This document shows positions 6,602 through 64,000 of a stretch of 64,000 nt of DNA, in pieces (position 1 is the stretch's first letter; every line of letters starts with the position of its first letter). The DNA comes from Psammoneis japonica. Its lineage: Eukaryota. The notes under the pieces were generated by a model. The model saw only the letters and a program-made list of their open reading frames with translations. It was not told the origin of the DNA and did no database searches. A program made the position numbers and the translations under genes. The DNA lies in contig QPGO01000137.1 in the NCBI GenBank assembly GCA_008632985.1, forward strand, positions 62,001 through 126,000. Direction: 5' to 3'.

Positions 6602-6605
6602 TCAA

Positions 6606-7104
6606 GGATGGATCTACATGCTGCGGTCTGTTTTTTGGGAGCTCGCAATTTTTGTAAAAACAACCCGGATGCATCGCAGCAAATGCGCGTGCATTCGCAA
6701 AAAAAATTTCAGTGATTGGTCGAACTTTGTCCATTCGCCAGACACCCCAGAATGCTCAAACGACAGGTGTGACCATGTGCGACTTTTGCCTTGACGACTG
6801 CAGATGTGTCCATGGCCAGTCAAATGCCACTCATCGGCATTTCCCGGAAAGTTGCTGCCAATCTCCCATGAGAAGCCCAATTTTAGCAAAAATTGGCGGT
6901 TTTTTTGACCTGACAACAGGGCATGGGTCGACAAGTGGCATTTGAAGCACTGAACGTGCAGCTCTTGTAGCCATCTGACAGCCCCTGTGAGGGTTTGACG
7001 AACGCAAAAGTGTTCGGGGGTGTTCCGAGGCAGGTCAAAACAACACGGTGAAGTGCGGGAAATGCGAGCCATTTTAAATTAGACCGCAGCACGTAGATCC
7101 ATCC
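6606..7104. mobile_element. About 500 bp non-autonomous TIR element, TTAA-type target
   Basis: TIR GGATGGATCTAC(A/G)TGCTGCGGTCT at both ends, flanked by TCAA (6602-6605) and TTGA (7105-7108). Confidence 0.8.
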
Positions 7105-31700: not shown

Positions 31701-32286
31701 TCTGTTTGCCGCTTAAGATCTCTACACGCAGGGCAGTGGCGCCTCCTCAGCAATTTTTCTTTTCGCAGCTGGAAGAATCCATTCGAAACACGAGCGGTGC
31801 GAGTCTTCAATCTCAGTTCAACGAATGCCATTGAGAACCCACTCATACTCCAAATGCACCAGCTCGTTCGTATACGAGACTGCTGTTGCTGCAGCTCAAA
31901 CCTTGTGATTGCACGATATGATGTCAAAGGGGTGCATGTGGTGGAACTGTTCTTGTGGGGAGGAGGCTCTTGTGTTGCAGGTCGCGTCGACGAGAATAAA
32001 TACCGATGCGACAGTCAATACGTACATGATAGAGATGTAACAAATGAGCAGCATACAACCAAGGGTAACCACCACCGGAACTTATCTTTCAGTTAGTTAC
32101 TTGCTTCGGACTGATGTCGCATCCAGACGATCTAAGTTCAAAGAGACACAAACTCGTCGCCTCCTCACAGTGTTACCGTTTTGTGTCGAATTCTAATCTT
32201 TTCCCGCCACCTTTTGTTGTTTGGCAGTCTTGAGTTCTAATTTGTCTTTCTCGTAGGCAAGTCCCGATGAGTGTCCTTTCTCATTC

Positions 32287-33471
32287 TCAACAAGAGCCAT
32301 ATATTATTGAATAATACCTTCGCATTCGATCTAAAGTCAAGAACGATTCCTCTGCGCGCATTTGTTTCAAATGGAAACTAATGCTAGTCACAGACACTCC
32401 GTCCAGACCGTCTTGCGGGTCCATGCCATGATGTTCCTTCAGCTTGGATTGCAAAATGTTGTGCGGGCTCTTTTCAAAGCTCCACGTTGATTGATACAGT
32501 GCATCCTGCGCATGATACCGAAACGCAGGATCTGATGTGTCTTGGCATTGGATGTTCTTTTGATAGAAACAAATGGCCATGGCATAATCTTCGCCGGGCG
32601 AGGTGAAATTGTGTCGGCATGTGGGCAAGAGTTCCTTGACAAACAACGAGAGCGCGGCTCGGTTCAATGTGTAACCAGAGCCACCACCACAATACGTCTT
32701 TCGAGGTCTTCCAAGGAGGCCAGCAATGGGGCCACCCATGTAGATTGGCTGTGTGTCATCGAGTGTTTCACTGTAGCTCTTCAGGTTTTCAGGAATCACA
32801 AACATGTCATCTCCACCAATGTGAAAATAGTCATAGTCGTCCAGATAGTGGTCGTGTGCATAAGCCCACATACTTCGAACCTTTTGCCACATGTTGATGT
32901 ATGCTTCTGGGCCCAAATGGGTCAAATCGACAGCTCCGACCTGTGGGTCCGTTGCATTGGATGCCGCCATAAAGCCGTCACACCTCTGACCCCATGTTTC
33001 CCGAATGGCTTGCAAAAACTCGTGTCGATTCGAATGTGTGTACACCATGCAGAGCAATTTCTTTCCAGACTCGTTTCTCGGAGACACTACAATTTTCTTG
33101 AGCGCCTTGTAAGCATCCATGCTCCCCTCTGTACCCAACCCTGGGCTCTGTCGACACTTGGGAACCGTGTCTACTGGATGGAAATGAAAGAAAGTTTCAT
33201 CATGAATGTATCCAAGCTTGCCTCGTTCATCTCTGGCACCACCATGAGGATGAGCCTCTGTGGGTGGCTCTTCGAGAGAGTAGACTTGTTGACTCGCTGC
33301 TTCCAGAAATATCACCAGCACCACCACGGAACTAAAGACCATGACAAACGAAGCGACGCATTTCCAAACAACGCGATGAAGAGACCCGGGCTTGCCTCTT
33401 CTTTTGGAAGATGTCGGATTTACACTCGAGTTGACGGGTCGTTGCAGTCGACGACGGCGCGGACTGATCAT
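32287..33471 (-). CDS. GT31 glycoprotein-N-acetylgalactosamine 3-beta-galactosyltransferase-like (C1GALT1-like) type II membrane protein, intact
   Basis: Basic tail plus TM helix; LLCMVYT, ETWGQRCDGF, NMWQKVR, DYDYFHIGGDDMFVIPENL, YCGGGSGYTL, GED and ISFH motifs. Single open frame from ATG 33471. Confidence 0.9.
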   Translation of the reverse strand: MISPRRRRLQRPVNSSVNPTSSKRRGKPGSLHRVVWKCVASFVMVFSSVVVLVIFLEAASQQVYSLEEPPTEAHPHGGARDERGKLGYIHDETFFHFHPVDTVPKCRQSPGLGTEGSMDAYKALKKIVVSPRNESGKKLLCMVYTHSNRHEFLQAIRETWGQRCDGFMAASNATDPQVGAVDLTHLGPEAYINMWQKVRSMWAYAHDHYLDDYDYFHIGGDDMFVIPENLKSYSETLDDTQPIYMGGPIAGLLGRPRKTYCGGGSGYTLNRAALSLFVKELLPTCRHNFTSPGEDYAMAICFYQKNIQCQDTSDPAFRYHAQDALYQSTWSFEKSPHNILQSKLKEHHGMDPQDGLDGVSVTSISFHLKQMRAEESFLTLDRMRRYYSIIYGSC

Positions 33472-33630
33472 GGCTGGATGGTGTAACGATGACAGAAGAC
33501 TCAGAACACCACAACGCACGACAATACAGTACAACAGCGTCGTCTTCGTTTTGGTGCAGAGATCACATACAGTACCTAGGCTTTATTTATCTAGCTAGTA
33601 GTGCTGTCTGTCTACTGCGTCCGTTGACTA

Positions 33631-34140
33631 TGAGGCTACGACTAGCATAAACGTACCTGCCTGTTATACCGGTCAGACATTTTGTATTGGATTTTATGTA
33701 CCCCTTTATTTAACGATAACGGTTGATGCAAAAACAAATAGCAGTTTTTACATGTGTTACATATACAAATGGCTCACAAAAGTCCATACTTTTCAACTAT
33801 TTAGATGATTTTGTAGATTTTACACATTCAACCGTCGATACTCCTTTTGTCAACTCCGTCTTTGAATACTACTTCATATTATATGCTCGAATGTTTGATT
33901 AAATGGCGTGGCGGGCGTGGGCATGACCTTCATTTGAATTCGTACTTATAAAGAGACATTCTATATATTGCATCAGCATTTTGTTCGTTAAGTGCGTAGA
34001 ACAGTACAAATCTTACACAAAAAGTCATATGCAGTCATTCAACATTGTTTTATTTTATGTACGTCATTAATAAATTATACTAATGTTTTTTATTTGTCAA
34101 TTATTATATCATATTGCATTTTATGCTAGTCGTAGCCCCA
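33631..34140. mobile_element. AT-rich MITE with about 21 bp TIRs and TA target duplication (Tc1/mariner-type), not hypermutated
   Basis: TA|TGAGGCTACGACTAGCATAAA ... TTTATGCTAGTCGTAGCCCCA|TA, one mismatch. Confidence 0.85.
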
Positions 34141-36869
34141 TAGGGCCTAAAAACGGATAACTTGAACTCTGCATTTGACATTCGAAACCAGGCAGGCCTG
34201 GAACACTCGGGCATTTTGTCCATTGTTCAGACAAACGAACACAATCCAAATGGGGGGCAATAGGAATCTTTTGAAAATGACCCGTGACGTAGAGAGCATA
34301 AAATAATTAGAGACGCCTGTAGAATCTACACGTTTTTGTACTGAAACTGTTATGTTCACACAATTTGTGCAAGCATTTTTGCAAATGTGTTGAAGAAAAA
34401 TACACCTGATCAGAAAACAGTCAAATCCATTATTTTTCGCAAAGTTAAAATTCACTAAGGACAGACAGACAGACTTGTCTTGGCACTGTCCAACACAATT
34501 TCTACGCAATGACTCTGCAGCGCGAAAGATTGCCGTTGTCGTGCCTCAGTTTTTAGCTCGCATTTTGCAAAAAAAGGCTCATGTTCTAAAACCATCATCT
34601 TGAGCATGCCACGCGACACACGATGTGAGCACTCATGCATGCCATAAAAACGCGTCATCTGTGCGATGCCAAGTCCACACAAGAAGAAATTCTGGCTGCC
34701 GTCAGCCCTGGTTGAATCAGGCGTGGATGGCCATGTGTCTGCAGACGACTTCAGTCATGTGCTTGGTGACATGTGTCGAGATGGGTTGTCAGCTTGTGTG
34801 CCTTGGAAGAAACATCTTTGCTGTTGATTTGATGCCTTGACCTCGGAGGCTCCAAAAGATCAGAGTCTCACAAATCGACGCCTCCTTCGAACACGGAGTT
34901 CATGTCAGCCAGTGACGATGGTGCAGGTGCAGTTGAGAAAATTGCTGCAGAGCTTGTTGCCATCAGCAAGGAAGGCAACAAGAAAAAAAGGTGCATCAAA
35001 AAACAGGCTGCCAGCTGATTTTGAAAAGTTGATGCCGGGTGGAATGAGAGCATTGGAAACCACAGTCGGCTCATGCTGCAAACAAGCACTGGCAGTGCAC
35101 AAGTGGTTTTTCTAAAAACTTTTGGATCTCGGTGCATGGCTGCCCTGGAGCGTTTGGCTGCACAAAAACAAGCACCGGCTCAATGCTTGTCAACATGCAT
35201 CGACTGTTCTCAAAAATGCAGTCTTCCGCCATGAGACCATTGCATCATGTCGATCATTTGACACCTGGAGAAGATGATTTTGAAGCAAGTCAGATGGCGG
35301 CAACCCTCCATTGCACTCACCTGGCTTGTCCAAAGTCACCATGGTTGCCATGTTGCAAGTGCGGCAAACATTGTTTTTGGCAGAAAATCGCGAGCCACAT
35401 TGTCCAAAATTGAGCTAAAAAAGTAGAGACCGACCACCTCAAATGCAATCACCAAATCAAAATGTCTTCAAATCACTAAACAGCAGTGCAAAAATGTGCA
35501 ATTTGGATGTTGCAATCAAAGGAAAATGACCAATCCACACGCAAGTTGGTGACCAGAAGAACATTGTTTTTTAGCAAAAGTTGGACATTTTCCATTTGAC
35601 ATGCTGTTCGCCAACCCTTCAAACAAAAATGTCCCAAAGACAGCTGTGGACGAGTGAGGACATCTGAGGACAAATGAGGACAACTGAGGACAAGAAGTGA
35701 GGACAACAACTGAGGACAATTGAGGACAAACGTGGAGACAAAATCGCATGAGGACAAAAATGAGGACAAAAATGAGGACAAAAGCGCACTGAATCCTGTG
35801 CATGTCTGACCGTTTCACAGTGCAGTGCAGCAGGCAACTCCCGCAGCAGTGTTTTGTGCACTGCACCACAGATGCCAATCACCAACCAATCTGCTGCACC
35901 AATGGACGTGGGTGCATCGAGCACCAGCCAAGCCAACAAATGGCTTTTCCATGCTTGAGCTCATTGCGCTTAGGATCTGCAATGGATGCAGTGCTTCAAG
36001 TGCGGCAGCTGACAATGAATCATCTTTCCATGAAAAGGTCAGCTGGGCTGTTCATTGCATGATGTCTGTGCTGCAGTGGAAAAATGTCGACAAACAATGG
36101 TTGATTTGTTGTCAAAATGACTGTGACCATCAACCATCGTCCCAATTGCTGGTCAACCCACACACACAATGCGGGCGTCATGTGCATCAAGCAATCGACC
36201 CATCAGCCATTGACTGCACGCATGTGTCACATCTCTCATGTCACGCAAATTTGTGTTGTGTCAATGACAGATGCCAGATGAAAATTTGAACCCAATGCTT
36301 GGTTCAAACCCAATGCTTGGTTTGAACTCAATGCTTGTTTTCAACTCAACGGTCTGATGTCCTCCCACACGTGACAGCATCACAAAAAAAAAGTTCACCA
36401 ACCACCATGGCAGAACCCCCCGCATTGTAAGTTTCCTCACCAATGCACAGATGATGCTCACTTTCATTTTGACACATGTGACAACCCATTCTCTCACCAC
36501 TCTTTCACAGGCTGATGCAGGCAAAATGTTGGCTGGGCATTGTTTGCAATGTTGCACTGACAGGAAGCACCATCGCTCTGGCAGTCATGGCAGGAAGCAC
36601 AAACGGCATTGCAAGGGGTGTGCCAAGTCTGCTCTGCCTTCTGTGCACCCATTCTCTCTGTCTTCATGGTCAGACAAGATCAAGGTTGGGTGGCGTTTCC
36701 TCGTGGGTGCAGCTGTTTTGGCTGTTGAAACTCCGCTGTTGGCATTGAGTCCTCAACCTCAACCTGGATTGGACAGGGTTGGTGGGCTGCTTGTCTCCCC
36801 TGCTCCCCCCACAGTGGTTTCCACTGTTGATGCTGCTGCCTTGCACATCCCAGCCACCTCTTCAGCAAT

Positions 36870-49200: not shown

Positions 49201-49585
49201 CCCAGTTGTCTTCTGTTTGCTCCCATTTTGGGAGTGTGGGTGAACAGATCTGCCAGCACCTGACACCAGCATTTGTGTTTGTGAAGCAAGAAACAAACAA
49301 CTGTGAAACCTTCTGCAGCACTGCAAAACAGCATTGTGAATTTGTTCCTCCACCTCGTTGCCATTGTTTCATTGGGATGTCAAGGGTTTTTTGAGTGGAC
49401 AATGCAGGGGGAGAGCCATTTGTGAAAATCTTGTCTGGGGCATTGAAGCACCTGACAGCTGACTGTCAGAATCTGCTGACAACATTCGCCAAGGTGCTTG
49501 GACTGACAAAGAGCTCAGAGTTGTTGCTGTGAAGTAAACTCACAAATTGTGAATGCAGTGGAGCAATTCTCCATTTTGCACAGAG

Positions 49586-49980
49586 CAGACGCGTTCCAGG
49601 TCTAGGTAGGTGGGACCTCGCACTACTGAACTGTGACATCGACAGTTTTTTGAATCACGTCGTATGTCGCGCACGTAGATTTCTACGTGATTTTTTCGAT
49701 ATTTTGTGTCATTTTACGGTACACTTATTGAGCGATCCGTCCAACTTTTGACATTTTTTGTTACAGCGCGATTCTATAATGTCTTAAGAATCGCGTAGGG
49801 CAGGCGCATTTGCAGAAACGTCGAGTGGCAAGAGGCATAATTGCACCACAAACTTGGCAGTTCATTTGATGTTGAAGATAAACACATCCATTAATTAAAT
49901 TCTCGTACTGCGGAGCTCGCACGTAGAATTCTACGGGCCCAATGTCACACGGAGTCCCACCTAGGACTGGAACCCGTCAG
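49586..49980. mobile_element. About 395 bp MITE retaining TpA and CpG inside block E
   Basis: Left GACGCGTTCCAGGTCTAGGTAGGTGGGAC versus right GTCCCACCTAGGACTGGAACCCGTC. The interior has many TA and CG, unlike both flanks. Confidence 0.8.
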
Positions 49981-50179
49981 CATTGCATGCATCACTTTCA
50001 ATGCTCAATGGAGGGATTTTGAATGCTTTGCACTCCTTTTGAATTGCAGTTGATTGGGTTTGTTGACAGGGGGGCATTGGATTTAATGTTTGCAATGTCC
50101 TCATGACTGAATGTCCTCAAATGCCACATTGTTTGATGCTCCCTCTCATTTGGGACATGGGGCAATTGCCCTTGAACAC

Positions 50180-51600
50180 AACTCAGCCAATCAAAAATAA
50201 AGTCTTCACTTTTGGGACACTGCACTTGACACCCAGCAGACTCTGAGCAAGCCTTGCTGCCCCATCACTGGCAGACACAATGAGAGCAGAACATCTGCGC
50301 TCGCCAGCTTTGTGAGACAATTGGCAAATTGCTCCTTTGTGTTGATGGGATGGGCAGAGATTTCTCCCTTGGACACATGGTCTCTGAAGTGATGCAGCTT
50401 TGCATTCAAGTGTTTGTTTCTTGGACAGCAGCATTTGTGGGTCCTTGCAATTCAAAAGCTCTGCTGTTGCCCTCAAACACACAACAATGAACCATCTGCT
50501 TGCAGGTGTGCACCAGGAGCCTGTTGTGCTTCATTTCCTTGAGCAACTGCATGACAGGAACTTTGCTTCTCAATGCATGTGATGAGCCAGTGTCTGGCTT
50601 GTTTCTGCCTGCACAGATTCCAACTCAGGTGTGGTGCAGCATGCATGCAGACAAAAGGTCATTTTTGTCATGCCCTTTGTGACATTCAAAGGCTGCAACA
50701 CGTCGCCGTGATGCATTGGCTCTTGTTGGCAGCTGTGTGTTGCACTCCTCCCCATGTGTCACGCGTCCATGCGGCTCTTTGCCAACGTGCACTGACACTG
50801 CACAGTTTTGGCAGAACAGTGTGGGTGTGCACGAAGGAACACACAGAACTGCACAGAGTTTTGTGCGTTCGACAGTGATCAACGTTGCTGCAGACAACTC
50901 CCACTCAGGGTTTCGAACCCCCAGCCTCCTGCCTGATGGTTGCGATGAACCACTCCGCTGTGAATTCACAACGCAGCATGCATGCAGACAAAAGGTTGTT
51001 TTTGTCACGCCCTTTGTGACATTTAAAGGCTGCAACACGTCGCCGTGATGCATTGACTCTTGTTGGCAGCTGTGTGTTGCAGCGGCACAAAGTCCTTCAA
51101 ATTTTCTTCACCAACCTCAAACCCCTTTGGTGTTTGCACATAAATCTTGCACTCTGCTGGAGCCTGTGGGAAAGCCAAAACATGATCCAGCTGCTTGGCG
51201 TGCCAGTTGTGCACTGCTGTCATGGCAAATGGCATGGCGCTGAGTTCCGGGATGCCGCTGGGGCACATGTTTTGCCGCTGTGGACCCCTTCTCTCATTCT
51301 GGATCTTTCTGTGTTCAGTCTTGCCTTCCATTTCTTGACAGCATGGGCAAGGACATCCCACTTTCATTTCATCTGCTGCGCAGCTGGGGAAGTGTCTTTT
51401 TTTTGTCAGCCACTGCTGATCTTGGAACATTGGCAAAATTTTCATTTTTCATTTGTGCCTCAACCTCTTTGCACATTGCCTTGATGAGTTCCTTGCAAAT
51501 CTTGTTGTTTCATCACTTGGTGTGTTGTGTGCATGGTGTTGGGGACTGTTGGAGCTTTGCACATGTCAGAAGAGCACAGGATTGGTGTCATCCAAGATGG
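50180..51600 (-). mobile_element. Ty1/copia RT-RNase H relic of another lineage, interrupted
   Basis: WHAKQLDHVLAFPQAPAECKIYVQTPKGFE (RT) and KHLNAKLHHFRDHV...INTKEQFANCLTK (RNase H C-terminus). Confidence 0.8.
50636..51081 (+). repeat. About 109 bp direct repeat pair (50636-50744 and 50973-51081), possibly LTR-derived
   Basis: Near-identical copies 337 bp apart. Differences include ATTTAAAG/ATTCAAAG and GTCACGCC/GTCATGCC. Confidence 0.8.
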
Positions 51601-51749
51601 GTGATTCATCATGATGCACAGAGAAATGGCTGCTGGCAAAAATGTCTCTCCCTCAATGCCCCCTTTGGCATCTGCACTGAGCTCAGCTGCCATTGCTTGT
51701 GCCAGCCACTCAACTGGTCAGCTCTGTCACACCCTGATCTTGTGCTCAC

Positions 51750-52430
51750 CTCTTGTGTCCTTCTTGGCACTCTGGGCAGATCAGACTTGCCCTCCTGCTG
51801 TGGAGGTTCTTCTTTTGCGGCCCTCAACAACCTGGAGGTCCTGAGTGCTGATGCACAGAATGCCCATCTGAGTGCACACACCAAGGAAAAGTGTTGCACT
51901 GCTGCTGGACTGGGGTTTGGTGAGCAGAATGAAGGAAGGCCAGCCACAATTGTCCCAGCCTTGCAGGGACTCAAGTTGTCAGGTGCACAATTCCAAGAAC
52001 ATGTGGTGGCAACTTTGCATGAGACAGTGGATTTGAGTCATGCAGAGCAGATCCAGATGTCTGGATGAGGCCTGCAGTTGAGCCAGATGGCTTCAAGTGC
52101 TGGGAGCATGCACTTGTTCATGTGTGGACAATTCACCATGCATCTCCCATGAACCTCCAAAAGTCATGGACTGTGTGAGCTCTGGGTGCACATTGAAGGA
52201 TGGAAGTGTCTGCAAACCAGAAGAGCACCTGGGTGCACAGATCAGAAAATGTCAGCTGTCTGATGCAGAGGGTGAGATGTGCTGGGCCATGTCCTCTAAC
52301 TTGCACATTGAAAGGGCATTGGCTGATGTTGAAGTGGAGCTCAAGAAAACTGGGGGGCACCTTCCGACAAAGGCACTCACATTCTTGAGCTCAGGACACA
52401 GGCCTGAACTGGACAGTTCACTGGAGCTGG
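51750..52430 (+). mobile_element. Copia RT fragment, close relative of 26520-27100
   Basis: Long near-identical stretch CATGAACCTCCAAAAGTCATGGACTGTGTGAGCTCTGGG...GAGCTCAGGACA in both places. Confidence 0.85.
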
Positions 52431-52479
52431 CTTGTTTGGAGCCAACATCCAATCCATGGCCTGCAAATCCTCAAGGAAT

Positions 52480-54000
52480 CAAGGAACCACCTGCACCAGA
52501 GGGAGCTTGCAGGTCCTTGAGATTGCTCTGTAAGACCTCCACTTGCACACCAAGCTTGTTGGCCTCCCAGCCCAGATTTTGCTCATGCTTCTGTCCATGG
52601 TCTGGATCTGATTCTGGACTGCCTCCAACTTGTCCATGACAGTTGTTGCACCTCCAGCTCCAACCGCATTTGCATTGCCCACACCCTGGGCTTCAAGGTC
52701 AACTGGCTGATTCACCACTCATCAGAGCTGTCCACCCATTTCACATTTGAAGGCACCAAACTTGGCCTCTGACACCTTGTTGCATGCCTCATGAAAGATG
52801 CCTGGAACCTGATGCTTCAAACCCTTGGCCCATGCTGACACCACTCTGGTGAGCTGGTTCTCCAGTTTTACCCTGGCTTGCACCATGCCAGATTGCCTCC
52901 TGCACAGCTCCTGGGGGTGCTTCTCCAGTCACCCAAGCAGTCAAATTTGCCACTGCACCCCACAGGGTGGGGGCAACAATGTCAGACAAGAGACTGGGAG
53001 GTGGCTTGCCCACTGTGGCTTCAAGTTGCTCAACCTTCCTGCCCACCATCACCAGGGTTTGTTCTGAATCCTCTGCAGACTCCCATGCAAAGGTGCTCAG
53101 ATCAACCACTGCTTTCCCAACCTCAGTGAGAGCTGGCTCCATCCTTGAGATGACATGCCCCAGAGTCCTCACATCCTTGGTGAGCCAGTCTGAAGAACTG
53201 CACATGAGGCGCTGATGCAGGGTGAACTCTCCAATGGGGTCAGAGTCATCCCCATGCACTCCTTCCCACTTGCTGTCCTTTTTCCTCAGAGTTTTGAAGT
53301 CAGAAGCTTTGCAAAACTGGGCCGCTGGCTCCTTCACTCCCACCCTGGTGGCCATGTCTTTTGCCTCTGTCACTGCTGGGAAATGCTGGTGCCACTCGAG
53401 CAAAGCCTTCCCACTTGCCAAGCAGGTTGGACAAAATCTTGGCCACCTTGACTGTGGGGTCCACAAACCCAGTGTCCATGGACTTCAAGATGACCACATG
53501 CCCTTGGTTTGGGACAACCATGGCACCACCCTTGTAATTGACAAGGCACTCTGCTGCACATTTCAAACAAAAGGTTGCCCCGACTCCCTTGATGCCCAAA
53601 CACTTGCCATCTTGGGAGGAAACAAACACAACTTTGTGACCAGGAACTGCGGGTGACTGCTGGGATGCACCTTTTCCTGAGTCACCATTGGGGAACCCAA
53701 AATGCCTGGGCTCAGATCTAATGAATTAGAGGGCAGTGCTGTTCCGCCCAATGTCTCTTTGGCTGAAGTGCCCACAGCAACATCGTCCTCAAAAACAGGA
53801 CACCTCCGGAATGACCCGGAGGATCTTCCTCCTCCAGCGATGCTTCTCCAAGTTCTGTCTTGTCAACTGGCTCAACCACCACTTCAATGTCATCAGAATG
53901 ACCCTCGGAAGTGAGCCCCGAGTTCAATGACTGAGCAGCATGACCCACCCACCCACCCGCCCCTCTCCCGATGCCCGTGCGTGGGTTCTTGCAAAAGAGA
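52480..54000 (-). pseudogene. Relic ORF, possibly gag-like ORF1 of a tyrosine-recombinase (DIRS/Ngaro-type) retroelement
   Basis: Fragments CLGIKGVGATFCLK..AECLV and IVAPTLWGAVANL with a coiled-coil-like end. The family assignment is from memory only. Confidence 0.3.
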
Positions 54001-54791
54001 AGAATGAGAAGAGTGAGATGAGAGCAGTGCAGGGATGCAACCCTCATCCTCAAGTTGACACCCAATGACAAGGAACACATCATCATTGAAACCATCTTTT
54101 GAAGAAATCAGACACAGGAGAGAACAGCCAGAGAGAGAAAGAGAAAATTTCAACTTTGTTGGCTTCGCTTGATCCAGCCATGCTGATCCAGGCGTTCATG
54201 TCTCAAAAGAGCTGGAAGAGGCTGAAGTGGCCTCCATTGAAGCTCACATGAATGCTTGGGGGGGGCTTGGGGGGGGGGGGGGGACCCTTGCATTCATGGG
54301 ATGACGAAGGTTCGGTTTGTCACAATTGCGAGGACCAGGATCAGCCTCCGAAGATCAGGCGGGCGTGCTCTTGGAGCATCGTCTCCATCTATCCATCTAC
54401 TTGAACATCCATCTGTCTACTCTCTAGCTGGCAGAGAGTAGCTGGAGAGGGCCCTGCCGCTGTCTAAACTACTTGGGTGCCGCACCACGAACATGAAAGA
54501 GGGAGTCCGGTGTACGTGTGTGCAGCACGTACCGCACAGTCGTCTGCTCTCTATCTGCTCTACTGTGGCAGCTACAGCAGTGCAGTGCATGGAGCCAGCT
54601 AGCCACTCTAGCTAGCCAGGGCCTAGAGAGTAGCTGCTGCCACTCTCTCTAGAGCAGTGGCCAGTCATGTGCTCCTCTGTGCCACCCAAACTAAAGAGTC
54701 AATGCTGCAGGCCTAGACATGTGTTTCTCTTGTCTCATGCTGCACAAATCAATGCTTCTGCTATCCTCCACGAGTCACGAGCGACATCCCA

Positions 54792-55292
54792 CTATAAAAA
54801 ATATGAACACATTTTATGAATCTCCCTCGAAAATGCCAACTGCGCCTTGGCAGGCGAACTGGCTTGCGCATCCACCATGTGCTGCTGCACAAGCTCCAAA
54901 AAGTCGTCGCATTCCTCGGCAGCGTTCACAATGGACACTCCGGGCTGCGAAAAGACAATCTCGTGCTTGGCATCGGAGTCCGCCATTTTGATGTGAATCT
55001 TGCACACGCTTTCCTTCTTTCTACTTCCGAGCCATCTGTCACCAGGAACCTTGGCCTTGGCAATGTCACACGAATTGATGTGACGCGGGGTGCTTTTGCC
55101 CGACACGCTGCGAATCAACAGGCGCTTCGTCGTCAAGGAAATGAGGACGCGCTCGTCTTTCCCCAAACGGCGATGGAGCGCTTGAGTTCCTTCTCGCCGG
55201 AGGTGCTTCGGGTAATTCAAGGACAGCCAACATGGCATTTTAGGTACACGATGGTTGTATGAGAAGAGAAATTTCAAATGATATGAGTCCAA
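54792..55292 (-). CDS. Coding fragment of unknown function (possible PH-like fold)
   Basis: 166 aa ORF with protein-like composition and CpG retained; no clear start and no RbgA similarity. Confidence 0.35.
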   Translation of the reverse strand: MDSYHLKFLFSYNHRVPKMPCWLSLNYPKHLRREGTQALHRRLGKDERVLISLTTKRLLIRSVSGKSTPRHINSCDIAKAKVPGDRWLGSRKKESVCKIHIKMADSDAKHEIVFSQPGVSIVNAAEECDDFLELVQQHMVDAQASSPAKAQLAFSREIHKMCSYFL

Positions 55293-55399
55293 TGTAGCGC
55301 CTCTCCGGATTGCATTGATCGCGGTCCTCGGGAAAAATGTGAGCGCATGGGTTGTGCCTTATCCAGAACCTAGGATAATAAAATTTTTTGAAATCTGAA

Positions 55400-56242
55400 C
55401 GGCTTTTCATCATAAGCCAAGACTAACGCAGCATCTTGGTCCTCCATGTTTGCGGGGATAATACCTGGACTATCCCGTCGTTCCTTAGGCCACGTCGTTG
55501 ACGTCGCTTCTGAACATAGCGCCCGCCTTGTAAGTGACTTTGGTAAGGGCAAAAATCCCCTGTCCCTGTTTGGCGTTGACAGATAAGACCGAGTGAAACG
55601 GCGACACACTACTCGAGTTTGGTGTCTTGTAGTTACCGCCCTTGGTTTGTTGATATTTTGCTTGCTGCGCTTGATTGGCTACTTGTGCATTGACCTCTCC
55701 ATCCCATCGCTCGACACCTAATGGACAGCGGAGACACTTGATCGGCATGGGTCAATACAACAATACGAGGTTTGCCCGAACACCACTCTGCCACACGCGG
55801 ATCAGACGTGGCTTGTACCGCACGAGCATCCCGCGCTTCGACAATGACATCCACGGCTCGTAGCATTTCCGCCAATTGACGTTCCGCCTTGGAAATGTGA
55901 CTGGGATACCAATTTGCAGAGGGAAGCTTGTATCCAGAACGCTCGTAAATGGCGTCTCCTTCGCTACTTTGAGTGGGCGTGTCGCTGTAGAGCCGAGATG
56001 TTTGTAGCGCAGATTTCTCGGCGAACGGGTGTTCTTCTGCTCACTGAAAATGCACGGAAAAAACAGCTTGGTATACTTCTTGCTGAGCCAGCCATTGTTT
56101 GTGGTGAATACATCAAGCCTTGAGTGACTACGCGGATAGAAGCAGTACCGCGATGTTTGTTCTGCACAATGTTCTCTGGCGTGATGAAACCATGAGCTTT
56201 GCGAGCTGCAAAAGAGGACCAAAACTTGCTCTTCTTCTTCAA
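55400..56242 (-). pseudogene. RbgA/YlqF-family circularly permuted GTPase, frameshifted and lacking the P-loop segment
   Basis: WYPSHISKAERQLAEMLRAVDVIVEARDAR, KPRIVVLTHAD, VNAKQGQGI, then the RRG region joined directly to DSPGIIP. GxPNVGKS is absent. Confidence 0.7.
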
Positions 56243-56589
56243 AGTTTTAGAGACTTTATTATCGAAGAATAAACAATGATCAACAGCTCAACGCATAACG
56301 CACCCTTGAATGAAATTTTGTCCAAATGCCAGGGTGCATGTCAATTTTGTCAACGCACCCGCTCAATGTTTTTTTCAATTTTCTCTTGTCATTCGGTCAG
56401 TAACACGAGAACTTAGAATGCTTACTTCATGCTTGTATACTCGACTCAGTTTCAAAATTTCGAAAACCAGACCCAACGTCCCTGTACAGTAGATCCTTTC
56501 CCCCTACCGTATCTTGCCCGTGTTCTTATGGGCTCACAATATATTGCCAAAGGTGCAACAAGAAGAAGTTTACACAGCAGCATCGCACA

Positions 56590-57711
56590 ATGCGGTTCAT
56601 CTTACCGGCGGTTAATCTCATCATCACCCTCTTGTGCCTCACGCCTCGGGCTGTTGAAGCGAACGAGGCTGGCGTAATAAATCTATGTGACTTCTGTTCT
56701 ACGGCACCCCTTTGCTTCGGTAGTGAGGGTTTTTGCAACTTTCAAGAGCAATGCTGCACAATAACTACACCCTTTTCGGTGTGCAGACAGAATGCTCGGG
56801 ACGACTGTGAAAATACCGCAAGTCGTTGCAATCGAAGGTGCGATCGCATTGCAACACGTTCGGCTCGCTTTGCGTGTCAAACACAGTGTGCTGCCAACGA
56901 GAGAGACTGCCAAACGTCTGTTTCTAGGTGCAGCACATGCGCGTGCTTGCTTGTTGGTGAAGGCTGTGGAGATCAATGCGATTCTCGCCGCCTCAATCAG
57001 GAAGCGCGACACCGTCTTCAACTTGAGGAGCCCAACGATGTTAGTGACGAGTGTTTACAAAAGCCCCACATCACCAGTGTCGGTTTTGATGAGGGCCACC
57101 TTTCTATCTTTGCCCTGCCCGAAGATTGGCCTGAAGGAAAGGAACTTGAAGATGCCACGGATGGGGACTGCTTGCCCCTTGTCTTCCACCAGGCCTTTAC
57201 ATCGGAGAAGCAGATGCTTCCACGAAGCCCCAACTCGTATCTTGACGGAGCCTTGTTTCCATTGGGAAGATACAAGTTGGTTGATGTTTTGGAAGCTTAC
57301 GACAAGTTTGACACTGCTGATTCGGAATGGGATGTTGTCACAAACAACTGCGCAAACCTTGTCCTTGAGATAATGTTCTCCCTTGGCCTTGAAGCTGAGG
57401 ATGCGGGACTTGACTGGATCAAAGCCCAACTAATGTCCACAGATGTAAATATCAGGAAAGTACTACAGTGGGTTTTGGAGAGTCCAAACTTTGACTTGTT
57501 GGAATTTGATGAAGAAGATGACCCCGATACAATCGAGGAGCAGGTGATTGAAGCCTTGGTGGACACCTACGTTGACAACTATAAGTCAACGAAAGGCAAG
57601 GGCAAGGGCAAGAAGTCATCCAAGAAGTCCGGGAAGGGAGGGAAGTTATCCAAGACGTCATCCAAGAAGTCCGGGAAGGGAGGAAAGGGAGAAAAGGGAA
57701 AGAAAGTGTAA
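56590..57711 (+). CDS. Secreted protein: Cys-rich N-domain, RRL motif, putative permuted papain-like (PPPDE-type) domain, Lys/Ser/Gly-rich silaffin-like tail
   Basis: Signal peptide; densely spaced Cys; SRRLNQ and HRLQ; GHLSIF...WDVVTNNCANLV; tail KKSSKKSGKGGK repeated. Confidence 0.85.
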   Translation: MRFILPAVNLIITLLCLTPRAVEANEAGVINLCDFCSTAPLCFGSEGFCNFQEQCCTITTPFSVCRQNARDDCENTASRCNRRCDRIATRSARFACQTQCAANERDCQTSVSRCSTCACLLVGEGCGDQCDSRRLNQEARHRLQLEEPNDVSDECLQKPHITSVGFDEGHLSIFALPEDWPEGKELEDATDGDCLPLVFHQAFTSEKQMLPRSPNSYLDGALFPLGRYKLVDVLEAYDKFDTADSEWDVVTNNCANLVLEIMFSLGLEAEDAGLDWIKAQLMSTDVNIRKVLQWVLESPNFDLLEFDEEDDPDTIEEQVIEALVDTYVDNYKSTKGKGKGKKSSKKSGKGGKLSKTSSKKSGKGGKGEKGKKV

Positions 57712-58169
57712 AGAAAAATGGAACCGGGGAACATGGTGCCATGCTGTGGTTGGGGCAAATTGTTGTCGCGTAATCTCAAAGTTGGATCATGCCTTCGCTC
57801 TTGTAGTGCGGATGTGGCAATCCGTGTACAAGTCTATGCTCCTGTAGCACATAGCAGCACAGAACAATTTTCTGTTAATCGCGCGATAGGTGTCGTTTCA
57901 CTTCATCCTCTCTAGACAGTAGAGAAGCGCTTACTGGCATTGACTTTGATTTCTAGAGAAGCTGTCAGCTTCGACCATAGCTAGATGGTCTTACAAATAT
58001 TCAGTTCACTCCCCTGTTGACGGTCTTGGAGTCTTCGGCATGAATGAGAAGCGAAGCAGTTACCAAGAACGCTTTGAGATCCACTGCACTCTGTTGATGC
58101 TTCTGAAAAAAAGCCAATGACCAGGACTCAGTTTTCTTACAACAGCATTCTGTAGACAAGCTGCGGTTT

Positions 58170-58990
58170 CACAAATGGCCATGGCACAATCTTCACCAGG
58201 CAAGGTGGCATTGTGTTGGCATGTTGGCAAGAATTTCTTGAAAAACAACAAGAGTGTGACTCGGGTCAATGTGCAACCAGAACCATTGCCACAGTTTCTC
58301 TTTTGAGGTCTTTCAAGGAGGCTGACAGTGGGGCCACCCATGCAGATTGGCTTTGTGTCATCAAGTGTTTCACTGTGGCTCTTTAGATTTTTGAGAATCA
58401 CAAACATGTCATCTCTGCCAGTGTGAAAATGGTCACTTTCATCCAGACAGTGGTTGTGTGCACAAGCCCACACACTTTGAACCTTTTGCCACATGTTGAT
58501 GTGTGCTTCTGGGCCCAAATGGGTCAAATCAACATCTCTGACCTGTGGGTCCATTGTGTTGAATGCCACCACAAAGCTGTCACACCTGCAAACCCATGTT
58601 TCCCAAACAGCTTGCAAAACTCCTGTCAACTCAAAAGCGCACACTCCATGCAGAGCAATTTCCACTCATTTGTTGCAGACATGACAATTTTCTTGAGTGC
58701 CTTGCAAGCATTCATGCTCCCCTCTGTGCCCAACCCAGGGCTCTGTCAGTGCTTGTTGGAAATCATGTTTGCTGAACAGGAATGAAAGAAAGTTGCATCA
58801 CAAGCATGCCTCACCTTGCCTTGTTGATCTCTGGCACCACCATGAGGACAAGTCTCCATGGGCAGCTCTTGGAGAGAGCAGATGACTTGTTGTTGACTCG
58901 CTGGTTTCTTGCACAGCTCTGTGTCTGCTTGGGAGCTGTTGTTCCACATGGCTGGTTCCAAGAACATTGCCAGGAGCACCACTGAGCCAA
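58170..58990 (-). pseudogene. Hypermutated partial duplicate of the GT31 gene at 32287-33471
   Basis: Collinear nucleotide match to about 32570-33340. GPEAHINMWQKVQSVWACAHNHCLD versus GPEAYINMWQKVRSMWAYAHDHYLD. Confidence 0.95.
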
Positions 58991-60139
58991 AGAGTTGGTC
59001 TCCAAAAAGTGATTTGGTGATGGCAAGGCTGCGGAAGCTTTGCAGGCCCCCAGTTGCACAGGGGCAGTGGCATGATGGGTGAGGCCAAAATGGTGCCACA
59101 GGGGGGGTCAATGGGTTTTCTCATGTTTGACAAGTGCCAACTCAAGTGCAATTTGACCAACCTCTGTTGTTTTCATGTGACCCCATGTGATTCCTGTGGC
59201 ACCTGCAAAAGCCCAGCAGGAGCTGAGGCATCAATGCGCAGAACTCCCAAATTAACTTTGCTGTCCTGCTCCACAAGTGATGCAGATTGCTCCTGGTTCT
59301 CTAACTTCTGCTTTCCACCCACTGGCCTTCCACATGTGCCCTCTTTTTCAGTGACACCAAATTCTGTGAGATTCTTGTGTCTGCTCTTTTTCTCCCACAG
59401 CGGTCTGGCTTGACTCAATGACAACAAACATTTCTACTTGTGTCTCTCAAAATGCACACATCTTGCAAAAAAACACATTTTCCATTGCCTTTTTCTTCTT
59501 CCCACAACTTTTTGATGTTGCGACAGCTGCTGCCACCTTTTCACAATCCATGACAAACAAATTTGGAGTTGCCACAATGCCCCTTGGGCTTTGATGCATC
59601 CAGTGTTTCCATCTCTTCTTTTCCTCTCAGTTTTGTTGCACACTCTGGAAAATTTTAATTTCCATTGTCCAATTTCTGTTTGCAGTTTCCAGGACATGCT
59701 GCTTTGAACATTGTCTGTTTGCTTGTGGAGCAACTGCAATGGTGCAGATTTGCCATGGGTGGCTCTTTGGCTCCCAAAAGCAAACCCACCATGTGCAGAG
59801 GCTCTGGTCACAGTTGCACAAACAGAAAGCATTTTTAGAATGCAGTCAAGAGCTCAGCCACTGCTGCTCCATCCCCCCAGTGGTGTCATCAGCCCCAATG
59901 GATTTTGCCCTGACTCAACAAGGTTTTGGTGCAGATGGCAATTGCATGGCAGCCAGGGACACATGGCATTTTGTCATGTTTTCAGACAGACCTGATTGTG
60001 CGAGACTCCTTTGCATGGATTGAATCTCTGCAAGACATCAATTGTTCATTGCAGACAATTTGCAACAAATGCATGTGCCAAATGAACATGCAATCAATGA
60101 TTTAAAATTCAACACACACTCAGCAAACATCCACATGTT

Positions 60140-60745
60140 TCAGCAGCACAATTTCATTGTTTGGCAATTCTCCTTTTGCCATGGAGACAAAATTTCTTTC
60201 TCCTTTTGTTGTGGAAACAAAATTTTGTTGTTGACAACAAACAACAACAAACAGTGACAAACGGAGACAAATGCAAAATGACTCATCCAAGACACAACAA
60301 CACAAATGGAGACAGAGACAAAACAGATGGAGACAATGGAGACAAATTGGTCAAAACTGAGACAAAAAATGGGCTCTTTAACTCCATGCTGTGCCACAGC
60401 AGTGCTGGCAGTGCTTGCAGCAGTTTCAATTTATGGCTTGGCAGATGTCGGTGCCGTTGCATGTCCATCTGTCCTGTCATCAATGAATCTGTTGGTTTTG
60501 TCTCCAACTGGCAGGTGCCAGTGCCATCATGTGTCTGTCTGTCCTGTCATTGGTCAATCCGTTGGTTTTGTCTTGGTCTGTCTCATCAGAGACAAGATTT
60601 TCCTGTCTGTCTCCCCACTCATCTCTGTTTGTCTCCATTTGTTGTCGACAACAAAATTTTGTCTCCACCATTTGTCTCACCACAAAATGTGCTCCCATTT
60701 CAAAAACAGAGACAAATCGCCAAACAAAGGAGACTTGCTCACTAA
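60140..60745. mobile_element. Decayed foldback/MITE with GAGACAA subterminal repeats
   Basis: GTGGAAACAAAATTTTGTTGTTGACAACAAA (about 60211) is the reverse complement of TTTGTTGTCGACAACAAAATTTTGTCTCCAC (about 60638). GAGACAA repeats on the left, TTGTCTC on the right. Confidence 0.6.
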
Positions 60746-62186
60746 ATGACAAAGTGGCGCACATGTTGATGGGCAACATTGGCTGTGGTGGGGCCACTTG
60801 GTCGTGCACATTTGGGCTTGATGTGACTGTCCAACTGGCCATGCCCTGCAGGAATGGCTGTCAGTGGTTGGTGGAGCACAAGCAGAAGTTCAAAGCAAAA
60901 AACATGTGTGGGTCAAAATGTTGCAAAATGACACAAGAAAAAACCCAACTTGACCCAGGAATGCAGTGCATGAACATTGTCCAATTGCACTGATCTTCTC
61001 TGGAAATGCCGACCAGCAGAACAGTGAGTGGCACTTGCATTGCTTGCCATGGCATTGTTGCACATTTTGCCATTGTGCTGCAGTTTGCACAAGAAGGACT
61101 GGGCTCTGTTTTGCCAACAGCAGGTCTTTTTTGGCAACAGTGGATGTTTTGCTGTGTTGAATCTGAAGACATTTTGAGAAGCACTTTGCAATGACCCCAT
61201 TCAGTGCACATCAAAGGCACAAGAAAATTTGGTGACACACAAAAGCCTCAGAGACCAACTCAAATTCACATTGCCTGCAGACCAAATGGGTCGTGCACTG
61301 GCAAAAATCCACTGCCTGTGAAGCACAGCACTGGAAAAGGGAGACAAGCAAGAAGGAGCCAAGGTTGGAACAAACAAGTGAAGAAGACACATGAGAAGAG
61401 ATTGAGCAAGGATGCAGGGCAATGCAATGAAATGTGGTCCCAGAAATTCTGGAAATGCATCTGCCACATGGAAGAAGCTATCATGATGGACAGAACAGTC
61501 GATGAGTTGACAATGGAGAATGATGACAACCTTGATGAAGAGCAGGAGTTGTGGTTTGCTGCAGAAGCATTGCAGACAGCAGTGCAGTTGATGTTTGGTG
61601 GTGATTTGCAGCCAAAAAATGAGTCATTGGGGGGGGGGTGTTGGTTGGCTCCCCAAAGAGGAGGTGGTGAGCAAACAAGCAGCCAGGGGTGCCAAGCAAG
61701 ATGGTTGATGGTGAAAGGGATTGGGTGGATGCCAGCATCATTCAAAGAGGTGATCACAGTTGTTCCACATTGTGTTTTGTGGGTGCCATAAAATTTCCAC
61801 TTGGTGCTCGCATGGTGTGTGTGCCTTTTGTGACTCTCGCATGCCTTGTTAGCACAAACAGCAGGGCCGTTTCGTGCGGCGTCATTCACCAAGGGATGCG
61901 GAAGGAATGACAGACGCCTGTTGTAGATACACAGTAAGCTCAGAACCGCTTTTCGATTTTAAAATAAGTGCTACTCCATAGTGCGTTCAGCAGTTCTCTA
62001 GCTTACAGTAATCTTTGAACCTAGTTTAGTGCGGTATGTTGAATGTTTCGAATGCTTGTCTCTAGAGCATAGTCTTGATCTTGCATCAGAGAGACGAAGG
62101 GGTGCAAAATTCAGAAGCAGAAATGTGGATGCAGACCACGGCAATGCATTTCTAACAGAAACCTCAAGCTAGCTAGCTAAAAAAGC

Positions 62187-63059
62187 CTATTCCTTGATTT
62201 GTCGGATTCTCGGGCCTTTCATTTTCTGAATCGAATTCCAGATACCGTCCAGAGCAATCTGGGTTCTTTCTTCTGCTGACTTTGCCTGTAAAAGCTGAGG
62301 TCGAATTTCTCGTGCCACAGTCAGCGCTGGAGATGCATTAATGAGGGCGCCAACCCAGAATGCACACTCGGATGGCTGTTCCCACGATGGCAACGGGCCA
62401 AGTTCCTTCAGCAGCTTGTCCACTTGCGCTCGAGATAGCTCTTCTTTGGCTAGTTGAACCCACATGTCCACAAGACTCTTGGATTCATCCAAATTGACAT
62501 TGGGATGAGTGAATTCTCTAGCCATTTGCATGGCGCGTGTCATGCTCATGGGATCGGCTGCCGTATCGGCTGCATCTTCTGTTGCAGAGGTGAGAAATGT
62601 AACTCGAGCTTCGCTCCATCCAGCCTCGTTCTCGGCGACTGTTTCGGGACGAATACGAAATCGACGAGTGGCTTTGACTGTCACCTCAACCGAATCCTTG
62701 TTTTCTATAATGTGCGGTTTCCCTAGAATCTCGACAAGTACTCCCACGCCTCCCCAACCTCCGAGAATGCCAAACTGCGGTGTTTCCTCTTGCAGTCTTG
62801 CTCGAACAAGAGGCAAGTCGTTAACGATAATGGTTGCTGTTTGACGCGGTAAAATGCAAAAGTCTTTCATCACGACCAACGGGAGGCTACTTTCTGCAAT
62901 ACCATCTATTCTTTTCTGAAGAGACGCCATGGAAAAACCATTATTGTTCGACAGATGAATCCGAGTTTCTGGTCGTCGAAATGGTGACAACGGAGCAAAG
63001 GCAGAAACTGTATTCAGCCCGAAAATCAAAAAGCAACTGAACAAACAGTGGTAGCTCAT
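62187..63059 (-). CDS. Lon N-terminal (PUA-like substrate-binding) domain protein with bipartite plastid targeting signal
   Basis: MSYH...NTVSA|FAP; LPLVVM..CILPRQ, GVGVLVEI, VKATRRFRI, AFWVGALIN and EIRPQLL..SAEER. ATG at 63059. Confidence 0.8.
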   Translation of the reverse strand: MSYHCLFSCFLIFGLNTVSAFAPLSPFRRPETRIHLSNNNGFSMASLQKRIDGIAESSLPLVVMKDFCILPRQTATIIVNDLPLVRARLQEETPQFGILGGWGGVGVLVEILGKPHIIENKDSVEVTVKATRRFRIRPETVAENEAGWSEARVTFLTSATEDAADTAADPMSMTRAMQMAREFTHPNVNLDESKSLVDMWVQLAKEELSRAQVDKLLKELGPLPSWEQPSECAFWVGALINASPALTVAREIRPQLLQAKSAEERTQIALDGIWNSIQKMKGPRIRQIKE

Positions 63060-63801
63060 ACTGTAATGTGTTTTGGGTGCCGAGCCGAAGAATGAATGGA
63101 AATTCGTTGCCTCATTGGCATCGGCATGTTGGCATCCTGCTTGCTCATGTTTTTCGAATGCTTTCGTTCTTTTTCCGTTTCTGGCTGATGACGTGTCACA
63201 GAAGAAGCACCAACAGCTAAATGCCATATCCAAACAAACCCGGATGTCATACTTATGGCAAAACAAACCCGGACAATGCCTGGTGCCCGCGGCGGCGACC
63301 AAACTTTCGGATGACCAACTTTCGCGTTGCGGCAGCTCAAGGCTTTGGCATTGCAGTCGCCGTCACGTCCAATTGTTGCAAAAAGATTTGAATCTTGTAG
63401 CAGCGGTGTCTATCACGCCACGATGAGACCAATGGCGTTCTTGCGGGCTCCTTGGCAAACACAAGAAAGCCGAGCAAAACGTAGTCGTAGTAGGTTCTTC
63501 TTCGTGTCAGACGATGCATCTTTCTGATCTTCAAATTACACATCAATGCTACTGCTGTCGTTGATAAGCATCGGCTTGATGTAATCGTACAGGTAACCAT
63601 TAAGCCCAAACCATGATCCGTTAGACGGTTTGAAGAGGTAGGCATACCTTGACTTTAAACTATTCTCACCTACAGTATTTATCTTTTGGGAACACATCAA
63701 TGATATTTCCATAGGATCAATGCAACTCATAGCATGTAACATTGCATTCTTGATAGCTCTGTTCGCTGCATTTGGTACAATCGCGCATGGAACCAAACTC
63801 T

Positions 63802-64000
63802 CTACACCAAGAAATACCTGGAACCACTCCCTGTTGTCACGACTTCGCCTCCCGCCACCGTGCCTTTCGCAATCGGACTTGTTGTGACGCGCTCGCCTTC
63901 GGAGAAAGCTTCTGATCCACTGATAAAGCCAGAGATCGATCCATCCCTATTGCGTTTCCAGTTCACAATGGTTGGCACACCTTTCGGGGCCTGCATCGAC
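63802..64000 (-). CDS. 3' end of a gene running off the window (uncharacterised domain)
   Basis: Open frame ...VPTIVNWKRNRDGSISGFISGS...VTTSPI...TGSGSRYFLV ending in a stop. Confidence 0.65.
   Translation of the reverse strand, partial: SMQAPKGVPTIVNWKRNRDGSISGFISGSEAFSEGERVTTSPIAKGTVAGGEVVTTGSGSRYFLV

Follow-up and report, generated by a model that had tools for sequence, protein, structure and literature searches.

Hypermutation aimed at TpA has so far been described once, in a 2026 preprint on the chlorarachniophyte Bigelowiella natans, where its long-term footprint is faint (Mettrop et al., bioRxiv 10.64898/2026.01.13.699255). According to the main text of that preprint, 230 of 231 mutations gathered in two silent viral inserts during mutation accumulation were A>G or T>C, and each of these lay at TpA; the inserts mutated ~1000 times faster than the remaining genome and did so episodically between lines, and the authors propose an ADAT2-like adenine deaminase. 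The long-term trace reported there is a mild loss of TpA with gain of CpA and TpG (Rho TpA 0.45 in the region derived from nucleocytoplasmic large DNA viruses (NCLDV), for a cluster cut-off of ≤0.43), and the same main text mentions neither CpG, flank order nor diatoms (bioRxiv 10.64898/2026.01.13.699255). Here we analyse a 64,000-nucleotide stretch of the diatom Psammoneis japonica (assembly GCA_008632985.1, contig QPGO01000137.1, positions 62,001 to 126,000, hereafter the window), in which a fragment of a glycosyltransferase gene of family GT31 has lost every TpA and nearly every CpG of its intact paralogue. The reading we favour, at a probability of about 0.7, is that a regional, DNA-level, strand-symmetric process of TpA and CpG transition acts on silent DNA, and that the copy would be its dead GT31 target.

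The window resembles the B. natans case in that TpA gives way to TpG and CpA by transitions limited to particular regions, with ordinary sequence elsewhere, although silence of the regions is presumed here. CpA and TpG rise as TpA falls, and the depleted sequences include transposon-type domains. The host, however, is a stramenopile and not a rhizarian, and CpG is lost too (28 of 30 in the copy; observed/expected ratio, o/e, 0.23 in depleted DNA). In place of a mild trace (Rho 0.45) we find a TA o/e of 0.04 over 65% of the window. The B. natans rate was measured in mutation-accumulation lines, whereas ours is deduced from sequence, and the target here includes a host-gene duplicate. The diatom footprint is extreme and genome-shaping, belongs to a different supergroup lineage and is coupled to CpG loss; a natural before/after pair fixes its polarity, spectrum and in-place timing without experiment.

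Three further systems invite comparison. Fungal repeat-induced point mutation (RIP) turns CpA into TpA, enriching TpA, and strikes both copies of a duplicate, mainly within the duplicated stretch. As in ascomycete RIP, heritable dinucleotide-specific transitions destroy duplicated or mobile DNA here and leave compositional blocks beside normal genes; unlike in RIP, TpA is erased, the parent is intact and the block extends far beyond the homology. Fungal RIP as such was rejected on three counts: the spectrum does not produce TpA, only one copy of the duplicate is mutated, and the changes do not stop with the duplicated stretch. Decay of CpG through 5-methylcytosine (5mC), as in the vertebrate bulk genome against its CpG islands or in methylated diatom transposons, makes the same change of CpG to TpG or CpA and likewise leaves islands that keep CpG. 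It covers half of the signal, however: TA o/e (0.04) lies below CG o/e (0.23), two intermediate segments (2910–5293 and 6391–7210) are depleted in TA (0.18) with CG near normal (0.78), and we know of no 5mC mechanism that removes TpA. Editing of retroelements by APOBEC (on cDNA) or ADAR (on double-stranded RNA, with a 5′ U preference) also fixes context-specific deamination marks in genomic copies. Those enzymes leave strand-coordinated clusters made before integration, whereas the hits here are unclustered, fall on both strands, arose in place and cover flanks outside the gene fragment. We found no account of TpA/CpG-depleted domains or of RIP-like mutation in a diatom among open-access papers and bioRxiv; TpA-specific hypermutation is known, and diatom domains with coupled CpG loss are apparently undescribed.

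A mutated GT31 fragment and its intact paralogue

At E ≤ 0.001 the protein of the intact gene finds 362 homologues, of which the closest reach only 44–48% identity and belong to raphid pennate diatoms. All those with a named source are from diatoms, raphid pennates and others, and many are labelled glycoprotein-N-acetylgalactosamine 3-beta-galactosyltransferase by that source. A phmmer search of PDB sequences aligns residues 129–316 with chain A of 7q4i (C1GALT1, glycoprotein-N-acetylgalactosamine 3-beta-galactosyltransferase 1; E 1.2e-22). Since hmmscan at E ≤ 0.01 gives no Pfam family for the 394-residue protein, the Fringe-like/galactosyltransferase model included, or for the copy, GT31 membership is drawn from the matches to the PDB and to homologues; Pfam PF02434 is precomputed on some of the latter. 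The conserved residues of the catalytic core are kept in the intact gene: 23 columns are invariant over 33 aligned homologues (D165, G220–D221, G263, G266–Y267 and E294–D295 among them), and the aspartate pair would be the metal-binding motif. Its coding sequence (TA o/e 0.43, CG o/e 0.85) is like that of other genes, and its non-coding flanks (TA o/e 0.79 and 0.55, CG o/e 1.03 and 0.96) are like those of other gene islands. The paralogue was already described as untouched in a first-pass annotation made from the letters alone, and these levels in coding sequence and flanks agree.

The copy matches residues 45–301 of the intact protein, and thus lacks the first 44 and the last 93. In a tblastn search it appears as two segments in different frames, 58617–58171 (68% identity, residues 153–301) and 58994–58647 (48%, residues 45–142), separated by a frameshift that follows from a one-base deletion. 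There are other insertions and deletions: six bases are missing after 58662, three are extra at 58748–58750 and six at 58883–58888. An in-frame stop has replaced an arginine codon. The copy thus reads as a dead, truncated and frameshifted fragment of a C1GALT1-like GT31 gene. The copy being host-gene sequence, the earlier claim that a host-gene duplicate, and not only transposable elements, is a target holds. No convincing terminal repeats or long terminal repeats were found around it; the fragment might still have been captured by a mobile element.

Local alignment of the copy (58168–58908) with the intact gene (32566–33304) pairs 732 bases, 598 of them identical (81.7%). None of the 19 TpA of the intact stretch is retained: ten became CA, six TG, and the other three TT, CT or GA. 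Two of the 30 CpG survive, 14 having become CA, 11 TG and three something else, so that 25 of the 30 underwent the change of CpG to TpG or CpA by which deaminated 5mC decays. Where a TpA or CpG was lost by a single step, the outcome was TG or CA in 41 of 44 cases. Over its whole length (58170–58994) the copy holds one TA, which is new, and three CG. The first-pass annotation had read by eye an alignment of about 730 bp, the loss of all 19 TpA with some 16–17 ending as TG or CA, the conversion of most CpG and a single remaining TA in a TTAG context; the alignment reproduces each of these, with 16 TpA resolved to TG or CA and the TA at 58384, and all five example strings that it quoted are present in the two sequences.

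These losses far exceed the background of the pair. It had been suggested that TpA sites be compared with other A/T sites, and the TpA rate is far higher: transitions fell on 17 of 38 TpA bases and on 23 of 326 other A/T bases (Fisher p 9.5e-9), most of the latter belonging to double switches between TG and CA. The restriction of A>G and T>C transitions to TpA, which defines the B. natans type, is therefore found in the gene pair as well. For CpG the figures are 26 of 62 bases against 35 of 306 other C/G bases (Fisher p 9.7e-8). Were the 134 substitutions placed at random, all 19 TpA would be struck with a chance of 8e-10, and single transitions that leave a TA or a CG standing are nearly absent from the copy (one each). 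With 44 of 374 sites (~12%) outside pyrimidine–purine steps differing, the pair is old. Retention of 0 of 19 bounds TpA retention below 0.146 at 95%; by hand, each TpA base has then undergone 0.96 events or more, where other A/T bases have undergone 0.073, an excess of at least ~13-fold.

Polarity was read by aligning the intact protein with its 60 best diatom homologues and following the copy codon by codon. Tyrosine is the residue in most of the 60 outgroups at Y267 (59), Y144 (54), Y191 (53), Y204 (47) and Y209 (45), and is frequent at Y260 (35), Y213 (33, with Phe in the other 27), Y244 (32) and Y88 (29). All nine are Cys, His, Ser or Asn in the copy, which the outgroup tyrosines identify as the derived sequence. 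Tyr 64, 121, 215, 233, 296 and 303 of the intact protein are uninformative, as the outgroups are not dominated by Tyr there. His or Cys is the common outgroup state at no site. The annotation's argument that the intact gene keeps the family-typical tyrosines is upheld at the nine sites, and the ancestral His or Cys that would have spoken against it is not what the 60 homologues have.

At 14 further sites the pair has switched between TG and CA, a change that takes two transitions. At His74, His90 and His98 (parental CAT against TGT in the copy), as at Gly220, Gly263 and Thr145, the outgroups agree with the intact residue, so both changes happened in the lineage of the copy. Several switches that span a third and a first codon position may rather reflect ancient CpG that the two lineages resolved in different ways. 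The pattern fits a cycle in which a background transition creates a TA or CG that is then quickly converted to TG or CA. The 41 single-step events comprise 17 assigned to the plus strand and 24 to the minus strand, in random order (23 runs, 20.9 expected). Such a mixture speaks for numerous separate hits on double-stranded DNA and does not fit a single processive pass along one strand or an RNA.

Two further repeat pairs behave alike. Both members of the first (26542–27098 and 51852–52398, 84% identical) lie in depleted DNA and differ by 20 TG/CA double changes, which account for 40 of their 72 transitions; each copy resolved its ancestral TA and CG independently after duplication. In the second (3115–3565 and 45767–46210), TG or CA replaced 5 of 6 TpA and 13 of 19 CpG, repeating the before/after pattern at a smaller scale.

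Depleted domains, gene islands and base context

We segmented the 64 kb by one-kb counts and a two-state hidden Markov model (HMM) on composition. Depleted DNA makes up 41,377 of the 64,000 bases (~65%) and normal or intermediate DNA 22,622, in a mosaic of nine depleted and nine normal or intermediate segments with sharp edges, the boundaries being placed to ~100 bp or less. Depleted DNA has o/e values of 0.04 for TA, 0.23 for CG, 1.82 for CA and 1.85 for TG at a G+C content of 0.48; normal DNA has 0.56 for TA and 0.92 for CG at a G+C content of 0.47, and the other dinucleotides differ little between the two. The ratio (TG+CA)/(2×TA) is 41.5 in depleted and 1.9 in normal DNA, and the equivalent for CG is 8.5 and 1.5. 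If depleted DNA is near equilibrium, the TpA transition rate would be ~41 times the reverse rate, compared with 1.9 in the islands, and the CpG rate 8.5 times, compared with 1.5. The skew of TG against CA per domain ranges from −0.06 to +0.12 and is patternless.

Table. Features of the copy, its intact paralogue and the segments that contain them.
Feature	Position	Strand	Details
Depleted domain containing the copy	58075..61831	.	TA 14 (o/e 0.05), CG 21 (o/e 0.10), TG/CA o/e 1.87; HMM
Normal island containing the intact gene	31708..34666	.	~1.2 kb 5′ and 0.6 kb 3′ non-coding flank; HMM
Normal gene island abutting the domain of the copy	54303..58074	.	HMM
Intact single-exon GT31 (C1GALT1-like) gene, 'before' state	32287..33471	-	Open reading frame and translation, 394 residues plus stop
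GT31 pseudogene fragment (copy)	58170..58994	-	Matches residues 45–301 of 394; without the first 44 and last 93
In-frame stop TGA of the copy	58746..58748	-	Opposite Arg107 (CGA) of the intact gene; CpG-to-CpA on the plus strand
One-base deletion of the copy, opposite intact base 33014; causes the frameshift	58615..58616	-	Alignment gap list and tblastn frame change
Sole TpA of the copy	58384..58385	.	TTAG context; new, arose from CA of the parent

Every normal island contains long open reading frames (ORFs). Five of the 127 ORFs of at least 130 residues match Pfam, one family each: three in normal islands (SOUL, DUF2358 and LON substrate-binding), one in depleted DNA (MULE transposase) and a weak one in an intermediate segment. 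In three island genes, the non-coding 5′ and 3′ flanks show a TA o/e of 0.55–0.79 and a CG o/e of 0.78–1.03, against a TA o/e of 0.37–0.48 in the coding parts. In the island next to the copy, for example, an ORF at 56404–57708 (+) has a TA o/e of 0.48 and its 3′ flank (57709–58074) one of 0.68. Flanks that are normal, with TA above that of the coding parts, argue for a regional process that spares the islands and leave a genome-wide bias held in check by selection without support.

The domain of the copy begins within ~100 bp of the end of the homology at 58170; on the other side, homology to the parent stops at 58994 and depletion runs on to 61831, at least 2.8 kb beyond. Copy number was gauged by word depth in a public DNA run, X1, which has a single-copy depth of ~60 and is possibly from the sample behind the assembly. 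Depth is 66–113 over most of the domain, which is thus mostly single-copy at ≥90% likeness. In another depleted domain, a 391-bp element at 49587–49977 that resembles a miniature inverted-repeat transposable element (MITE), with terminal inverted repeats, has kept a TA o/e of 0.79 and a CG o/e of 1.4 at a summed X1 word depth of ~124,000. It appears to be young, very abundant and unmutated, which, as far as short or recent elements go, argues against a copy-number trigger and implies that depletion needs time after insertion. The repeat at 50671–51337 (summed depth ~58,000, many near-identical copies) is itself depleted in TA and CG. Targeting by region and not by homology, as proposed in the first pass, is favoured by the reach of depletion past the homology, the single-copy domain and the unmutated high-copy element.

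The bases around TpA matter as well. We compared the number of surviving TpA in depleted DNA with that in normal DNA, a ratio for which parity, given the lengths, is 2.1. Survival is highest in TTAA (0.77), followed by CTAA/TTAG (0.39) and GTAA/TTAC (0.23), then by CTAC/GTAG (0.10), CTAG (0.09) and ATAA/TTAT (0.085), and falls through GTAC (0.04), ATAG/CTAT (0.014) and ATAC/GTAT (0.01) to zero in ATAT (0 in depleted against 46 in normal DNA). With strands pooled, the base 3′ of TpA is A 119, G 47, C 40 and T 12 times in depleted DNA, and A 364, G 347, C 434 and T 381 times in normal DNA (chi-square p 1.8e-22). By our own arithmetic the ratios agree within ~3-fold with the product of two independent strand terms. 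These counts indicate an order of attack on TpA of TAT > TAC, TAG > TAA. Such trinucleotide specificity offers a handle on a candidate enzyme, and the sharp edges offer one for comparison with chromatin marks.

The same flank order holds in the two intermediate segments (p 7e-6), whose composition suggests that the loss of TpA can precede that of CpG. They also hold an open frame of 554 residues (3527–5188, +) with a weak match to the STAND NTPase family (E 9.7e-5, short of the curated cut-off), and fully depleted DNA holds a paralogous fragment at 45767–46210. Surviving CpG are shifted from A/T-flanked to G/C-flanked contexts (p 3.6e-6), and survival of G/C-flanked CpG is expected if deamination requires local opening of the duplex. 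Their spacing peaks at 180–185 bp (z ~4), but not significantly, since 17.5% of shuffles attain an equal maximum (family-wise p 0.175).

Weighing the possible causes

Under the reading that we favour, the GT31 copy would, after duplication, have sat in silent, non-genic DNA, where a process converting both self-complementary pyrimidine–purine steps, TpA and CpG, to TpG or CpA would have rewritten it; gene islands would be spared, promoters and untranslated flanks included. The CpG half is probably deamination of 5mC in methylated silent chromatin, and DNMT5a is reported to CpG-methylate diatom transposons (PMC9998398). The TpA half would be of the same kind as the TpA-only hypermutation of B. 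natans, its chemistry most likely the deamination of adenine after T by a TadA/ADAT-type enzyme; a TadA variant is reported to edit DNA adenines with a preference for the YAC context (PMC13109818). The cue would be chromatin or transcriptional state and not sequence homology.

Several points weigh against this. Both the chemistry of the process and its cue are what we infer from the pattern. TpA is its own reverse complement, so an attack on A looks the same as one on T, and T, the preferred 3′ neighbour here, is not the one known from natural ADAT/TadA tRNA substrates. The B. natans account is without a CpG component and has a much weaker long-term signature, and the two processes may be unrelated. 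The gene pair is old and by itself gives a rate at least ~13 times the background, not necessarily a fast burst. The repeat family at 50671–51337 seems to have spread while already depleted. Finally, in 419.5 kb of metagenome sequence from 80 loci with GT31 homologues, none of 722 one-kb windows carries the signature of a depleted domain, and the process is accordingly not general to the relatives sampled; as such contigs are gene-rich, the evidence is weak, and one of the windows has a TA o/e of 0.195 with normal CG.

The closest competitor keeps the regional targeting and moves the chemistry to thymine. A TET/JBP-type oxygenase would turn T (and 5mC) into 5-hydroxymethyluracil (5hmU) or 5-formyluracil (5fU), and a mispair with G would then yield T>C; 5-formyluracil does mispair with G. 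The spectrum is fitted equally well, since TpA>CpA and TpA>TpG would be one event on opposite strands, and T and 5mC are both 5-methylpyrimidines 5′ of a purine. Dinoflagellate TET/JBP enzymes are reported to make 5hmU that is enriched on repeats and silences transposons (PMC11572971), and TET2 variants to oxidise T to hmU and fU, with enhancement by mC (PMC11804724). Such a gene or modified base is hypothetical in this organism, however, oxidised 5mC alone would not yield C>T, and the sole experimental precedent of TpA-specific hypermutation proposes a deaminase, so we consider the thymine route unlikely. More doubtful still is a RIP-like mechanism in which pairing recognises and mutates duplicated DNA, and selection against mutated alleles alone spares the parent. 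In its favour, the copy is itself a duplicate, further depleted stretches are repeats too, and some diatoms are reported to encode DNMT4, a relative of fungal RID whose function is unknown (PMC9998398). Yet the spectrum is reversed, TpA being destroyed where RIP would make it from CpA. Nor has the parent lost TA or CG at weakly selected sites: its coding sequence and its flanks, the latter lying outside the duplicated part, have the usual levels. Depletion that reaches 2.8 kb or more past the homology, through a domain that is mostly single-copy at ≥90% likeness, and the 391-bp element that remains unmutated at a depth of ~124,000 speak against it too; a single-copy, host-derived target argues against repeat sensing.

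Explanations that dispense with targeted change to DNA fare worse. A genome-wide mutation bias, with genes retaining TA and CG solely through purifying selection on coding sequence, would account for the long ORFs in all normal islands, some with Pfam domains, but is very improbable given that the non-coding flanks of the islands exceed the coding parts in TA and are normal in CG, that boundaries are sharp and that the non-coding, MITE-like insert of 391 bp keeps a normal composition within a depleted domain. RNA A-to-I editing by an ADAR-like enzyme, followed by reverse transcription and insertion, would place the mutations before integration. A retrocopy could not be told by its structure, as the parent has no intron, and ADAR is noted to prefer a 5′ U (bioRxiv 10.64898/2026.01.13.699255). 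The strand symmetry of the changes (17 against 24, in random order) largely refutes this route, CpG is lost as well, depletion reaches kilobases beyond the fragment and the copy contains neither end of the mRNA; we regard it as scarcely credible.

A sequencing or assembly artefact, such as systematic miscalls at modified bases, is just as hard to sustain. Both motifs could be methylation motifs, and the library type of X1 is unrecorded. Contigs from X1 nonetheless reproduce the depleted sequence: one of 2271 bases matches 58067–60337 with six differing letters at a depth of 66, and another, over 52671–54494, bridges the junction between depleted and normal DNA at 54302. On this evidence the domain of the copy is real DNA. 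Since X1 may be the source sample, this agreement tests the assembly and not independent biology. Long X1 pieces compared with positions 44001–64000 show 21 differences over 7686 bases of depleted DNA and 3 over 3957 bases of islands (p 0.03). The insertions and deletions, transversions and TG/CA double changes of the copy are unlike miscalls.

Returning to the regional process on silent DNA, a broader form of it would be that the diatom runs a heritable, domain-targeted, two-motif system of DNA editing as a genome defence, with a dedicated 5′-TA enzyme (a DNA adenine deaminase or a thymine oxidase) alongside CpG methylation; most non-genic DNA would then be rewritten, host-gene duplicates included. 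We advance this tentatively, at somewhat less than even odds. If true, TpA hypermutation would be an ancient or recurrent defence of the SAR lineages (Stramenopiles, Alveolates, Rhizaria) and not a peculiarity of one chlorarachniophyte, and base-editing work would have an interest in a natural enzyme acting on adenine (or thymine) of chromosomal DNA.

False reading frames and repeats in depleted DNA

Counted on both strands, depleted DNA contains 123 TAA and 52 TAG (175 together) against 2124 TGA, whereas normal DNA contains 768 TAA and TAG against 875 TGA. The near-absence of TAA and TAG produces long false ORFs in all six frames, and 96 of the 127 ORFs of at least 130 residues lie mostly in depleted DNA. 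These are a trap for gene prediction and matter to annotators. Scans of the window for Rfam families and tRNAs gave no hits. The only ORF in depleted DNA that Pfam recognises as a transposon is the MULE transposase remnant (40837–41379, −). A word-index search among longer proteins found no relatives for it, and an exhaustive search found 402; an alignment with 80 relatives has Tyr as its leading residue in only two columns, and the remnant reads His (CAC) in each, which is the right direction at low power.

Other repeats were noted in passing. The repeat at 50636–51337 contains a 109-bp direct repeat of 95% identity (50636–50744 and 50973–51081), and its contig variants are mostly transitions, including adjacent CA>TG pairs. 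Within the domain of the copy, a small element at 60182–60668 has 47-nt inverted repeats (83% complementary) and 70-bp tandem units, and word depth rises to ~340 close by, at 60676–61342. At the edge of a depleted segment, ~430 bp (6175–6599) are 78% identical to their own reverse complement, forming a long imperfect palindrome.

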